Shown here: in pieces, positions 4,933 to 28,465 of the stretch
Layout: each line of letters begins with the position of its first letter
Numbering within the stretch: position 1 is the first letter of the stretch
Assembly: GCA_036930585.1 (NCBI GenBank)
Contig: GCA_036930585.1_3066.1
DNA from: a phage
Strand: one strand, 5' to 3'
DNA length: 64,000 bases
The notes under the pieces: model-generated
What the model was told of the DNA's origin: nothing
Database searches by the model: none
Seen by the model: only the letters and a program-made list of their open reading frames with translations
Position numbers and translations under genes: made by a program

Positions 4933-5523
4933 ATGCTCTTTACATTTTTTGATCCGATTGAATATGCGGCCAAAACGGTGAATAAAAACGCGCCGACTAT
5001 TCCTATGACAGATATTTTTAGAAACTATAAAGACTATTTTAAACGCGCTCTTGCGGGATACCGCTTACGTACTTATTATATCAAAGGTTCACCACGCCCG
5101 GAAGAATTAGCAAATACTATATATGGAAATCCACAGTTGTATTGGGTTTTATTGATGTGTAATGATAATTATGACCCGTATTATGGATGGATTACTTCAC
5201 AAGAAGCAGCTTATCAAGCATCTATACAAAAATACAAAAATGTAGGTGGAGACCAAATAGTATATCATGTGAATGAGAACGGTGAAAAATTTTATAATTT
5301 AATATCATACGATGATAATCCATATGTTTGGTATGATAAAGGTGATAAAGCTAGAAAATATCCTCAATATGAAGGAGCACTTGCTGCTGTTAATACGTAT
5401 GAAGATGCTGTTCTTGAAAATGAAAAACTTCGTCAAATAAAAATAATAGCAAAATCAGACATTAATTCATTTATGAACGACCTTATACGTATAATGGAGA
5501 AATCTTATGGAAATGATAAGTAA
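4933..5523 (+). CDS. 53: baseplate wedge protein gp53
   Basis: 196 aa, position before gene 5. Confidence 0.8.
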   Translation: MLFTFFDPIEYAAKTVNKNAPTIPMTDIFRNYKDYFKRALAGYRLRTYYIKGSPRPEELANTIYGNPQLYWVLLMCNDNYDPYYGWITSQEAAYQASIQKYKNVGGDQIVYHVNENGEKFYNLISYDDNPYVWYDKGDKARKYPQYEGALAAVNTYEDAVLENEKLRQIKIIAKSDINSFMNDLIRIMEKSYGNDK

Positions 5524-7237
5524 TAACCTTAATTGGTTTGTTGGTGTTGTTGAAGATAGAATGGACCCATTAAAATTAGGTCGTGTTCGTGTTCGTGTGG
5601 TTGGTCTGCATCCACCTCAAAGAGCACAAGGCGATGTAATGGGTATTCCAACTGAAAAATTACCATGGATGTCAGTTATTCAACCTATAACTTCTGCAGC
5701 AATGTCTGGAATTGGAGGTTCTGTTACTGGACCGGTAGAAGGAACTAGAGTTTATGGTCATTTTTTAGACAAATGGAAAACTAACGGAATTGTCCTTGGC
5801 ACGTATGGTGGAATAGTTCGCGAAAAACCTAATAGACTTGAAGGATTTTCTGATCCGACTGGACAGTATCCTAGACGTCTAGGAAATGATACTAACGTAT
5901 TAAACCAAGGCGGAGAAGTAGGATATGATTCGTCTTCTAATATTATCCAAGATAGCAATCTAGACACTGCGATAAATCCTGATGATAGACCACTATCAGA
6001 GATTCCAACTGATGATAATCCAAATATGTCAATGGCTGAAATGCTTCGCCGTGATGAAGGATTAAGACTAAAAGTTTATTGGGATACCGAAGGATATCCG
6101 ACAATTGGTATTGGTCATCTTATCATGAAGCAGCCAGTTCGTGATATGGCTCAAATTAATAAAGTTTTATCAAAACAAGTTGGTCGTGAAATTACTGGAA
6201 ACCCAGGTTCTATTACAATGGAAGAGGCGACAGCTTTATTTGAGCGTGATTTGGCTGATATGCAACGTGACATTAAATCACATTCTAAAGTTGGCCCAGT
6301 CTGGCAAGCTGTCAACCGTTCTCGTCAAATGGCATTAGAAAATATGGCATTTCAGATGGGTGTTGGTGGTGTAGCTAAATTTAACACAATGTTAACTGCT
6401 ATGTTAGCCGGAGATTGGGAAAAGGCATATAAAGCTGGTCGTGATTCATTGTGGTATCAACAAACAAAAGGCCGTGCATCCCGTGTTACCATGATTATTC
6501 TTACGGGGAATTTGGAATCATACGGTGTTGAAGTAAAAACCCCAGCTAGGTCTCTATCAGCAATGACTGCTACTGTAGCTAAATCTTCTGACCCGGCTGA
6601 TCCTCCTATTCCAAATGACTCTAGAATTTTATTCAAAGAACCAGTTTCTTCATATAAAGGCGAATATCCTTATGTGCACACAATGGAAACTGAAAGTGGA
6701 CATATTCAGGAATTTGATGATACTCCTGGGCAAGAACGATACAGATTAGTTCATCCAACTGGAACTTATGAAGAAGTATCACCGTCAGGAAGAAGAACAA
6801 GAAAAACTGTCGATAATTTGTATGATATAACCAACGCTGATGGTAATTTTTTGGTAGCCGGTGATAAAAAGACTAACGTCGGTGGATCAGAAATTTATTA
6901 CAACATGGATAATCGTCTTCACCAAATAGATGGAAGCAATACAATATTTGTACGTGGCGATGAAACTAAGACAGTTGAAGGCAATGGAACTATCCTAGTT
7001 AAAGGTAATGTTACTATTGTAGTTGAAGGTAATGCTGACATTACAGTTAAAGGAGATGCTACCACTTTAGTTGAAGGAAATCAAACTAACACAGTAAATG
7101 GAAATCTTTCTTGGAAAGTTGCTGGGACAGTTGATTGGGACGTTGGTGGTGATTGGACAGAAAAAATGGCATCTATGAGTTCTATTTCATCTGGTCAATA
7201 CACAATTGATGGTAGCCGTGTGGATATTGGGTTATAA
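5507..7237 (+). CDS. 5: baseplate central spike / tail lysozyme gp5
   Basis: 576 aa; lysozyme domain DEGLRLKVYWDTEGYPTIGIGHL (T4-lysozyme-like E/D/T); C-terminal VxGxxxxx beta-helix repeats. Confidence 0.92.
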   Translation: MEMISNNLNWFVGVVEDRMDPLKLGRVRVRVVGLHPPQRAQGDVMGIPTEKLPWMSVIQPITSAAMSGIGGSVTGPVEGTRVYGHFLDKWKTNGIVLGTYGGIVREKPNRLEGFSDPTGQYPRRLGNDTNVLNQGGEVGYDSSSNIIQDSNLDTAINPDDRPLSEIPTDDNPNMSMAEMLRRDEGLRLKVYWDTEGYPTIGIGHLIMKQPVRDMAQINKVLSKQVGREITGNPGSITMEEATALFERDLADMQRDIKSHSKVGPVWQAVNRSRQMALENMAFQMGVGGVAKFNTMLTAMLAGDWEKAYKAGRDSLWYQQTKGRASRVTMIILTGNLESYGVEVKTPARSLSAMTATVAKSSDPADPPIPNDSRILFKEPVSSYKGEYPYVHTMETESGHIQEFDDTPGQERYRLVHPTGTYEEVSPSGRRTRKTVDNLYDITNADGNFLVAGDKKTNVGGSEIYYNMDNRLHQIDGSNTIFVRGDETKTVEGNGTILVKGNVTIVVEGNADITVKGDATTLVEGNQTNTVNGNLSWKVAGTVDWDVGGDWTEKMASMSSISSGQYTIDGSRVDIGL

Positions 7238-7240
7238 ATA
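7233..7240 (+). promoter_or_regulatory. T4-type late promoter TATAAATA overlapping gene 5 stop, upstream of GIY-YIG gene
   Basis: tataaata at 7233-7240, about 15 nt before ATG 7256. Confidence 0.5.
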
Positions 7241-7255
7241 ATTCAGAGGTAAATT

Positions 7256-8119
7256 ATGAAGAAATCCAAAACCATACAATTCCGTTACATTTATAAATCA
7301 ACAGTAACCAACCCAAAGGGGTTGGTTCGAATATATATAGGAAAGCATGAATCCAGATATTTTAATCTAGAGGATGATAATTACGTAGGAAGCGGGGATT
7401 ATATACAAAAGATTAAAAACAAACCAGGCTATGCTATAGATTTCGAAATTATCGAATTCGTTTCAACACTCGATGTTTTAAATGAAAGAGAAAAATTTTG
7501 GATATCTGAATATAGAAAAACGGGCCAGTGTGTTAATATAAAAGACGGTGGAGATGGATTTTCTTCAAACGATTTAAAACGAATGTGGTCTAATCCTGAG
7601 TATCGAGAAACTCAACTTAAAGCTTTGGCAAAAGGAAAATCTACAAAAGAATTTTCAGAAAAAATTTCAAAAATTAATAAACTTAGATGTTCGGAATCGG
7701 AATATCGAAAGAAAATGAGTAATGCGATGAAAACTGCTTTTGAAAATGATCCCACATTAAAAATTCGTATTTCTAATACTGTCAAATCTTTATGGAAATC
7801 CGATGAATATAGAAACAAATTAATTAATCATCCAGGAAAAATAGAAGGAACGAAAAAATCCTGGAATAATCCTTTAATAAGAAAATCAAGATTAGATACT
7901 AGAAATAAAAAACTAAGATCAGTTGAACCTTGGATTAGTATTGAAAAAGTCAAAAAACTTTGGGAGGATTTGGGAAAACCTCATCCGCAGAAATATAAAT
8001 GGTTTAGAGAAAAAGCAATTGAACATAATCTACCGGATGTAAGTTATAACGCAATTTTAAAAGCATTGAAAAAATGTGATTATAAATTTACACCATTGGA
8101 GAATTCAATAATTGGCTAA
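7256..8119 (+). mobile_element. GIY-YIG homing endonuclease (Seg-like) with NUMOD3-type repeats
   Basis: N-terminal YIY...YIGK...E...N catalytic pattern (RYIYKSTVTNPKGLVRIYIGK, EREKFWISEY, NIKDGG); repeated SNPEYRETQL / SESEYRKKMS / KSDEYRNKL modules. Confidence 0.8.
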
Positions 8120-8153
8120 TATACTTCCTTTAAATACCGACTTAGGAGAATCC

Positions 8154-8648
8154 ATGGAAGGTTCTTCTATCGACGTCACCTTTACCGCTCAATTAGAAAC
8201 AGGTGAAACGTTAGTATCTATAAATATAACTAGTTACGAAGAAACTCCTGGGGTTTTAGTAGAAGAAAATCGCTTATACGGAACATATGAATCTGTGTTT
8301 GGATTTGGAAATGACGCGTTGAAATATCGTTTAGGCGATGAATTTAAAACTGCTGCTTCATGGGAAGAACTTCCTACTGATTCTGATACTCAGTTGTATT
8401 TATGGAAAGCTCCTCAAAACCTCCAGAAGACATTCACTTACGAAGTAACATTAATATATGACTACCAAGAACAAAGTGAATCTGGAGGTTCTGGCAGTAA
8501 TTCTAGGTCATCTTCTGATACTACTGAACCGACAGATCCTCCTGCTCCAGTAAGAAAAACTCTCGTTAAAAATTATACTAAAACTATAGTTGGAAATTGG
8601 AGTCGTTGGGCTAATAAATTAAGAAGCTATGTGTATGAGAGGTCATAG
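8154..8648 (+). CDS. hypothetical protein (gene 5.x region); track ORF starts at TTG 8112
   Basis: ATG at 8154 with GGAG RBS; acidic, Ser/Thr/Pro-rich C-terminal half. Confidence 0.5.
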
Positions 8649-8942
8649 ATGTCAGGATTAAGTTATGATAAATGTGTTACTGCTGGTCATGAAGCATGGC
8701 CTCCAACAGTTGTGAATGCTACACAAAGTAAAGTATTCACTGGAGGAATTGCTGTTCTCGTAGCAGGTGATCCAATTACAGAACATACAGAAATTAAAAA
8801 GCCATATGAAACACATGGCGGAGTGACACAACCTAGAACTTCTAAGGTATATGTCACTGGAAAGAAAGCTGTTCAAATGGCTGATCCAATATCATGCGGT
8901 GATACTGTGGCTCAGGCATCATCTAAAGTATTCATTAAATAG
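8649..8942 (+). CDS. 5.4: PAAR-like central spike tip protein gp5.4
   Basis: 97 aa, immediately upstream of gene 6 as in T4. Confidence 0.75.
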
Positions 8943-28457: not shown

Positions 28458-28465
28458 TATAAATA
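28458..28465 (+). promoter_or_regulatory. T4-type late promoter TATAAATA for gene 19 (second copy at 28399-28406)
   Basis: tataaata about 15 nt upstream of ATG 28480. Confidence 0.55.

Follow-up and report, generated by a model that had tools for sequence, protein, structure and literature searches.

A predicted Seg-type GIY-YIG homing endonuclease gene at the gene 5/5.1 junction of a T4-like phage genome

SegF of bacteriophage T4, whose gene is located between genes 56 and soc, is an example of intronless homing. The Seg enzymes of T4 are active and are preferentially inherited in crosses, and the characterised free-standing endonucleases of the T-even phages reportedly cut hundreds of base pairs or more from their own genes (PMC2988022). 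A second point of reference is I-TevI, the endonuclease of the td intron. Here we analyse an open reading frame (ORF) found in a phage sequence of 64,000 nucleotides, hereafter the window, which is the whole stretch of DNA that was analysed. We consider it probable that this ORF encodes a Seg-type GIY-YIG homing endonuclease, nearest to SegF and SegB of T4, carried on a cassette of ~0.9 kb that homes to the empty gene 5/5.1 junction.

The ORF is free-standing, encodes 287 amino acids and occupies positions 7256-8119 on the plus strand, with a Shine-Dalgarno GAGG (7246-7249, +) legible in the sequence 6 nt before its ATG. A sequence-only reading had reported an ORF of this length in the gene 5 region, and the ORF is real; the start at 7233 given there is the position of a promoter motif. 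That reading also placed the gene between genes 5 and 5.4, while it is gene 5.1 that directly follows the ORF. Gene 5 (5507-7237, +), which encodes the baseplate hub and tail lysozyme, matches Pfam Gp5_OB, Phage_lysozyme and Gp5_C and ends with the stop codon TAA at 7235-7237. Gene 5.1, assigned from the T4 annotation and PHROG_1168 (1.6e-73), runs on the plus strand from an ATG of the annotated type (8154-8648) or from an alternative TTG at 8112, and it is followed by gene 5.4 (PAAR; 8649-8942). The PHROG_1168 alignment begins at residue 1 of the TTG-started form; an ATG start stands at the equivalent gene 5.1 position in other genera and in the allele C context described below.

Junction alignments place the point where the sequence common to endonuclease-free phages resumes at ATTGGCTAA (8111-8119, +). 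In the window these nine nucleotides supply the last two codons and the stop of the endonuclease ORF, and in native phages they form the end of gene 5 and include the TTG that may start gene 5.1. Genes 5 and 5.1 overlap by 8 nt in T4-type coordinates, and the cassette site falls within this overlap. The cassette itself contains a gene 5 end (...S R V D I G L stop), whose stop codon is fused to a late-promoter motif, followed by the Shine-Dalgarno sequence and the ORF ending on ATTGGCTAA. Gene 5 remains intact because the cassette supplies a replacement for its end.

The gene is sporadic rather than universal at this site, as it was found in 33 full records and 2 fragments among the 655 records matching the flanks (about 35/655), and the site is empty in T4 and Elenatom. 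Three diverged alleles (A, B and C, with the window carrying allele A) share the same site and the same architecture, which recur in T6, vB_SsoM_113, fPS-2, F2, ZQ3 and CEV1. The F2 and ZQ3 copies have 99.7-99.8% DNA identity to the window gene, and the window protein is 100% identical to the cluster that holds the ZQ3 protein; the T6-type allele shares 82% DNA and 86% protein identity with the window gene. In the collection searched, the window is the only case of the F2-type allele on a T4-like backbone, and a search of IMG/VR for further copies returned one locus only. Between the three alleles dN/dS is 0.08-0.09, with synonymous sites saturated, and these values indicate strong purifying selection on the whole protein, catalytic residues included. 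We considered whether the final 31 nt of the ORF arose by duplication, from a native gene 5 tail that then decayed, and rejected this: the permutation result for allele A (p=0.024) was accompanied by non-significant results for alleles B and C, and only ATTGGCTAA is shared with the native tail.

Analysis of the catalytic domain (residues about 9-101; 7280-7558, +) upheld the GIY-YIG pattern claimed by the sequence-only reading. The ORF contains Y11-I-Y13, I26-Y-I-G29, Y43-x-G-S-G47, E79 and N94, and across 50 relatives Y13, Y27, G29, Y43, the GSG, E79 and N94 vary little or not at all. E79 lies in a motif matching that of I-TevI E75 (ERENFWI against EREKFWI), and N94 matches N90. The catalytic residues are likewise kept on alignment with the Seg enzymes, with the motifs of the ORF aligning with those of SegA to SegG. 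PHROG_314 ('homing endonuclease') matched the ORF at 6.7e-20, the family profile matched the I-TevI catalytic domain at E=3.4e-10, and the ORF product has the alpha/beta GIY-YIG fold. Pfam PF01541 (GIY-YIG) did not reach its gathering cut-off of 22.6 bits in a search with the N-terminal 105 aa (12.2 bits, E=0.24); among the 50 relatives, PF01541 was matched in 11 and SegE_GIY-YIG in 16 (E<=0.001). A Foldseek search against the PDB returned no match for the protein. No arginine equivalent to I-TevI R27 could be placed by sequence alignment; the helix bearing R27 lands in an insertion of the profile alignment, and the same gap occurs in the active T4 Seg enzymes. R34 is a candidate counterpart and is not conserved across the family. 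Weak matches of the ORF to GerD and PEPcase in Pfam/NCBIfam were dismissed as helical-repeat artefacts, leaving no curated match. Judged by its motifs, profile matches and conserved residues, the ORF belongs, as the sequence-only reading had proposed, with the Seg-type GIY-YIG homing endonucleases and is an ordinary representative of that known class.

Downstream of the catalytic domain, the AlphaFold model shows a tandem array of 17-residue helical units, about 5-6 in number, with the core W-x-x-P-E-Y-R (residues 103-223; 7562-7924, +), the helix breaking every 17 residues. The earlier count of three NUMOD3-like repeats was too low, and Pfam gives no support for NUMOD3 in this protein: PF07460 gave no match to the ORF even at E<=10, and an HMM made by hand from T4 NUMOD3 units gave no significant match. 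NUMOD3 was matched in 6 of the 50 relatives, and residues 165-181 align with a Pfam-recognised NUMOD3 unit of one of them, P0013 (residues 151-167; pairwise E=3e-24). The units are presumed to be NUMOD3-like and to form an extended DNA-binding region. They are followed by a helical, helix-turn-helix-like C-terminal domain (residues about 226-273; 7931-8074, +) that is common to the C-termini of SegA and SegF.

SegF is the best T4 match of the ORF product (26% over 165 aa). The two proteins share the K-H-E-S and Y-x-G-S-G motifs, an additional T/N-P-K-G turn joining strands one and two and a similar C-terminal domain, and both genes abut or overlap the gene upstream. In both genes the same codons carry a GAAA-type hairpin, which in the 5' coding part of segF is described as an intrinsic terminator (PMC2988022). 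In the ORF this is a 9-bp hairpin on codons T-N-P-K-G-L-V (7306-7327, +), the positional homologue of the segF terminator; its two sides co-change in 5 of 9 pairs, and the observed score was reached by 0 of 500 shuffles. The hairpin is not a family-wide trait, as it is missing from three more distant segF-like relatives. In contrast to segF, the ORF hairpin has no U-tract, the repeat array is longer, the locus and presumably the target are different, and the ORF has the promoter motif TATAAATA where segF reportedly has no promoter of its own (PMC2988022). With I-TevI the ORF product shares, as far as its sequence and model indicate, a modular catalytic domain, an extended linker or helical region and a C-terminal helical DNA-binding domain. 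Both genes have a late promoter, for the ORF a predicted one, directly upstream, and the ORF product would also share cleavage near the insertion site if our target prediction is right. Unlike I-TevI, the ORF is not intron-encoded and has no zinc finger and no alignable R27; nor is its ribosome-binding site sequestered by a significant hairpin, the structure predicted for the read-through RNA being weak (z=-1.5).

The motif TATAAATA (7233-7240, +) is the T4 late-promoter consensus. It overlaps the stop codon of gene 5, in agreement with the late promoter noted there by the sequence-only reading, and is conserved in all three alleles. The window holds 25 copies of the motif, where shuffles predict 9.7. 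The gap from this copy to the ATG of the ORF is 15 nt, and the other copies preceding ATG-started ORFs in the window have gaps of 14-29 nt; the sole outlier, at 73 nt, belongs to an ORF that is also preceded by a closer motif at 14 nt. The fPS-2 record independently labels the same motif 'predicted late promoter'. The leader of a transcript from this site would be just about 10 nt long. Gene 5 is itself a late gene. As no terminator-like site was found on the plus strand between gene 5 and the ORF, late expression of the endonuclease would not depend on TATAAATA alone. A further late-promoter-like motif, TATAAATT (8081-8088), lies inside the ORF upstream of gene 5.1, within a 15-nt stretch that is identical across the three alleles; this conservation is a hint only, since about one such run is expected by chance.

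Comparison of the window with F2 and Elenatom revealed a mosaic patch of about 985 bp (7165-8150). Within it the window differs from F2 at 4 positions (99.6% identity), and beyond it the F2 flanks differ from the window by 20-35 positions per 100 nt (about 30%). Against the endonuclease-free Elenatom, the window shows 0 differences over 6800-7212 and 8142-8800. The heterology to the empty site inside the patch measures 44 bp, and the patch edges lie no more than 47 nt and about 10 nt away from the heterology. Travelling with the endonuclease gene is a variant 3' end of gene 5 (7213-7237, +), which reads AGC CGT GTG GAT ATT GGG TTA TAA in place of the native TCG AGG ATT GAC ATT GGC TAA, the changes being mostly synonymous with one added Leu codon. 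Codons resembling GGT AGC CGT are native in Krischvirus JSE. The last codons of gene 5, from 7213 onward, are part of the mobile patch. The patch is consistent with preferential inheritance and co-conversion of flanks, as read from natural genomes with no assumed direction of transfer. The gene looks active and recently acquired.

The proposed homing cycle would begin late in infection, with enzyme synthesis from TATAAATA and/or from gene 5 read-through. In a mixed infection the enzyme would cleave the DNA of phages without the gene, at its uninterrupted gene 5/5.1 junction. The predicted target lies around GATGG-ATCGAGGATTGAC-ATTGG^CTAATATACTTCC..., with a cut expected no more than about 45 bp from GATGGATCGAGGATTGACATTGGCTAATATAC when the site is empty. 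The sequence-only reading placed the target in gene 5 or 5.4, and one in or close to the gene 5 end fits the mosaic boundaries. Because the characterised free-standing T-even endonucleases reportedly cut far away, the junction target is one that we infer from the short mosaic patch. Repair of the break would copy the cassette from the endonuclease-bearing genome, as in intronless homing. The enzyme's own genome should be immune, its site being destroyed by the insertion and by 13 nt of adjacent, mostly synonymous changes.

Four endonuclease-free phages keep the variant gene 5 end and the final 33 nt of the ORF, fused at TTATAAAT. This 8-bp direct repeat has its left copy at 7232-7239 and its right copy at 8080-8087 (+), the latter containing most of TATAAATT. 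We read these phages as footprints of gene loss by deletion between the two repeats, with the right copy as the deletion endpoint; such a footprint should be uncuttable. The alternative is that the four represent the ancestral empty site rather than deletion derivatives and that the true target is this variant site, not the T4-type junction. We regard this as unlikely. The repeat bounds the cassette on both sides and can be read as an insertion point, and allele B has the same flanks as the footprint, an outcome that repeated conversion would also give. Against it, homing does not create target duplications, and a pair of repeats suited to slippage is unsurprising because TTATAAAT occurs three times in the cassette. 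The ancestral-site reading further needs the last 11 codons of the ORF to have pre-existed in frame within a spacer, and the T4-type junction is the one present in the closest backbones of the window.

Quite unlikely, in our judgement, is a resident gene that has lost homing and has spread or persisted only through ordinary homologous recombination of co-infecting T-even phages, perhaps being kept for its signals or another role. Recombination among T-even phages is intense, the cassette carries TATAAATA at 7233 and the conserved TATAAATT upstream of gene 5.1, and the retention of seg and mob genes is reportedly favoured by embedded promoters (PMC2988022). The strong purifying selection over the whole protein speaks against such a loss of function. 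In addition, the patch edges hug the heterology despite donor-type flanks about 30% divergent, and repair of a local break fits this better than random crossovers do. The four phages lost the gene with no apparent harm, which argues that it is not needed for expression of its neighbours.

Orthology to T4 segC, raised by the sequence-only reading and entailing displacement by one gene, is hardly credible: both are GIY-YIG genes of the gene 5 to gene 6 interval with 32% identity over 122 aa of catalytic domain, but segC in T4 lies one gene further downstream, between 5.1 and 5.3 (T4 annotation; PMC2988022 Table 1), neither segC nor 5.3 is in the window, SegC (annotated at 140 aa in the T4 record) resembles the ORF product in the catalytic domain only and is its third-best T4 match behind SegF and SegB, and the PKG loop insertion, internal hairpin and C-terminal domain are common to the ORF and SegF and not to SegC.

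The preferred reading, homing to the empty gene 5/5.1 junction, admits a tentative and rather doubtful extension in which the enzyme cuts a few tens of base pairs from its insertion point, the gene 5 end copy serves as an autorepression operator and the hairpin attenuates expression. Such close cutting would resemble that of intron-encoded enzymes and differ from the distant cutting reported for other free-standing T-even endonucleases, and a promoter-bearing gene 5 end acting as operator would parallel autorepression in I-TevI. If true, this would be a compact self-regulating cassette able to enter overlapping essential genes harmlessly.

Little in the identification is new, because public records already annotate the gene as seg-like (T6 'seg-like, T6ncORF142'; vB_SsoM_113 'putative Seg-like homing endonuclease'; fPS-2 g146); our literature search found no paper on this specific gene. 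No concept is changed, the gene class, regulation motifs and behaviour being textbook T4 biology. The analysis adds a Seg-family endonuclease, known from sequence, with a sharply bounded natural transfer footprint, and the patch of about 985 bp together with the 44-bp empty-site heterology allows the recognition site to be predicted precisely and cheaply. The engineering of Tev-type nucleases could profit from a new, well-defined GIY-YIG specificity. For the T-even phages, the empty site, three occupied alleles and deletion footprint provide a natural series for the homing cycle.

The window is a genome segment of a T4-like (Tequatrovirus) phage, and the endonuclease ORF within it is a real mobile Seg-type GIY-YIG endonuclease gene. 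Analysis of the gene order placed gene 5 at 5507-7237 (+), where Pfam recognises Gp5_OB, lysozyme and Gp5_C and a TAA stop lies at 7235-7237. It is followed by the 287-aa ORF at 7256-8119 (+), whose ATG is preceded by GAGG at a distance of 6 nt, gene 5.1 at 8154-8648 (+) when counted from its ATG, the Pfam-matched PAAR gene 5.4 at 8649-8942, and gene 6. The sequence-only reading had set the ORF between genes 5 and 5.4; its actual neighbours are genes 5 and 5.1. Genes 5.1 and 5.4 directly adjoin at 8648-8649, and T4 segC and 5.3 are missing here. Small antisense ORFs within gene 5, at 5529-5666 (-) and 6633-6800 (-), occupy the positions of T4 repEB and repEA (oriE region). Gene 5.1 possibly starts at an alternative TTG at 8112, which overlaps the upstream stop, instead of the T4-annotated ATG at 8154 (window 8112-8156). 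This longer form adds 14 conserved residues (ANILP...), which start with ATG in JSE, CIP9 and the allele C contig. The PHROG_1168 profile matches the longer form from its residue 1 onward.

Comparison with endonuclease-free phages such as T4 and Elenatom established the anatomy of the insertion. Their native junction reads ...GATGG ATCGAGGATTGAC ATTGGCTAA TATACTTCC..., in which gene 5 finishes on ATT GGC TAA and TTG GCT AA.. is a possible gene 5.1 start. The window reads ...GATGG TAGCCGTGTGGAT ATTGGGTTATAA ATAATTCAGAGG...[ORF]...ATA ATTGGCTAA TATACTTCC, so that the heterology spans 7213-8110 and the shared ATTGGCTAA (8111-8119) forms the end of the endonuclease ORF. The heterology starts with 13 densely changed nt, mostly synonymous (TCG AGG ATT GAC to AGC CGT GTG GAT), and the insert brings its own end for gene 5 (G L stop), with the late-promoter motif fused to this new stop. 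Since Krischvirus JSE natively has similar GGT AGC CGT codons, the variant end looks like a natural allele of foreign origin that came along with the insert, not one newly recoded. A reading of the final 31 nt of the ORF as a decayed remnant of the gene 5 tail failed a permutation test and was rejected.

Difference maps of the window demonstrated no differences from Elenatom over 6800-7212 and 8142-8800, and only 4 from F2, a phage with the same allele, over 7165-8150, against 20-35 per 100 nt outside. These maps confine the crossovers to stretches of sequence identity of 47 nt on the left and 9 nt on the right. A cluster of eight substitutions at 8127-8141 (CCTTTAAATACCGAC vs CCAATGAGCGCTGAT), located where the extended 5.1 frame begins and common only to F2-type phages, marks the patch's right edge. 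If a double-strand break drove the exchange, it would lie within the patch 7165-8150. The replaced empty-site sequence is 44 nt long and is the sole difference between cut and uncut genomes; together with a break in the patch, this leads us to predict the native gene 5/5.1 junction as the endonuclease target. Characterised free-standing enzymes usually cut at a distance from their own genes (PMC2988022).

The insert is not universal at this site: the full gene occurs in 33 of 655 flank-matching phage records, and two CEV1 fragments hold partial copies. Allele A (window, F2, ZQ3, CEV1) is 99.7-99.8% identical in DNA; allele B (T6, ACG-C40, Yersinia phages, vB_SsoM_113) shows about 82% DNA and 86% protein identity, and allele C, from one sequencing-run contig, 74% protein identity. 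All three share the identical place, gene 5 end, TATAAATA motif and Shine-Dalgarno sequence. Values of dN/dS between alleles are 0.08-0.09, with synonymous sites saturated, and indicate selection on the protein. Alleles A and B are themselves mosaic: the window and T6 (L005) show about 70% identity over 7200-7700, in the catalytic half, and about 95% over 7700-8100, in the DNA-binding half, which suggests that alleles have recombined within the gene.

In four endonuclease-free phages, 215Ecol030PP (L010), LF73P1 (L011), ESh36 (L012) and LF73P3 (L013), the variant gene 5 end is fused to the final 33 nt of the ORF, with TTATAAAT at the join (near 1888-1990 in each locus). This looks like the footprint expected from a deletion whose endpoints are the window's 8-bp repeats (7232-7239 and 8080-8087). 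A further copy of the 8-mer at 7291 indicates that such repeats are common here; that the four are ancestral empty sites is less likely than deletion. LF73P1 is F2-like on its left side and T6-like on its right.

The ORF alone goes unrecognised by curated libraries: Pfam GIY-YIG reached only 12.2 bits on the N-terminal part (cut-off 22.6), and neither Pfam NUMOD3 nor any relevant NCBIfam model matched. PHROG_314 'homing endonuclease' matches at 6.7e-20. The claimed GIY-YIG catalytic pattern was borne out by alignment with the T4 Seg proteins and I-TevI, which demonstrated the Seg-type pattern Y-I-Y13, I-Y27-I-G29-K-H, Y43-x-G-S-G, E79 and N94-I-x-x-G-G. An exhaustive search gave 1251 relatives at E<=0.001, only two with at least 40% identity, and in an alignment of 50 relatives Y13, Y27, G29, Y43, G45-S46-G47, E79, N94 and G98/G99 are invariant or nearly so; its profile matches the I-TevI catalytic domain over residues 5-93 (E=3.4e-10). 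No counterpart of I-TevI R27 could be aligned in the ORF, and equally none in the T4 Seg enzymes; Table 1 of PMC2988022 lists six of the latter as active (SegA, B, C, E, F and G). The encoded endonuclease is probably active. Residues 103-223 are predicted helices that break every 17 residues around a W-x-x-P-E-Y-R core, giving about 5-6 units rather than the three NUMOD3-like repeats first counted; 'NUMOD3-like' itself is plausible, as residues 165-181 align with a Pfam-recognised NUMOD3 unit of the relative P0013. Residues ~226-273 resemble the C-termini of SegA and SegF and a PADLOC homing-endonuclease profile, and disorder is predicted for residues 275-287. Distant relatives (L017, L020, L021, L022) occupy other positions in phages: flanked by terminator-like hairpins, following nrdD/nrdG, between the portal and prohead protease genes, and between gene 40-like and DnaB-type helicase genes beside uvsX, the last recalling the T4 segA position.

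Orthology to T4 segC, which had been left to alignment, was rejected. In one small search SegF (E=4e-9) and SegB (E=9e-9) matched better than SegC (E=5e-7), and an extra P-K-G turn is common to the ORF and SegF alone. The T4 order is 5, 5.1, segC, 5.3, 5.4, 6, with segC inserted at 5.1/5.3 (PMC2988022), whereas the ORF lies at 5/5.1; with segC and 5.3 absent, the segC site of this phage is empty, and a different endonuclease is carried one gene upstream.

The late-promoter box said to overlap the gene 5 stop is present as TATAAATA at 7233-7240 (+), and alleles A, B and C retain it. Copies of this motif exceed expectation in the window (25 vs 9.7 expected); 16 of the 25 precede an ORF of 80 aa or more that starts with ATG, at 14-29 nt in all but one, and the exception, at 73 nt, belongs to an ORF with a second motif at 14 nt. 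For the endonuclease copy the gap to the ATG is 15 nt, near the 14 nt found at 28458; the fPS-2 record annotates the equivalent of this copy as a 'predicted late promoter'. Read-through from gene 5 would be late too. RNA folding gave no significant structure hiding the ribosome-binding site. A late-promoter-like TATAAATT at 8081-8088, 23 nt ahead of the putative TTG start of gene 5.1, might drive downstream genes; it falls in one of only two ORF stretches of at least 15 nt identical in all three alleles, a conservation not above chance.

A 9-bp hairpin, AACCAACCC AAAG GGGTTGGTT, lies within the ORF at 7306-7327 on the T-N-P-K-G-L-V codons. Hairpins with different stems form on these codons in alleles B and C and in T4 segF as well, and the hairpin was absent in three more distant relatives. 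Both sides change together in 5 of 9 pairs, and the observed score was reached by no shuffle; in alleles B and C the hairpin is preserved through compensatory synonymous changes. For segF, PMC2988022 describes the hairpin as an intrinsic terminator within the 5' part of the coding region, but that of the ORF lacks a U-tract, so attenuation of the endonuclease gene is offered only as a hypothesis.

Several GenBank records already label the gene seg-like or homing endonuclease, and a literature search found no functional study of it. What the analysis adds is the precise layout of the insertion, the mosaic patch, the apparent deletion footprints and the predicted target.
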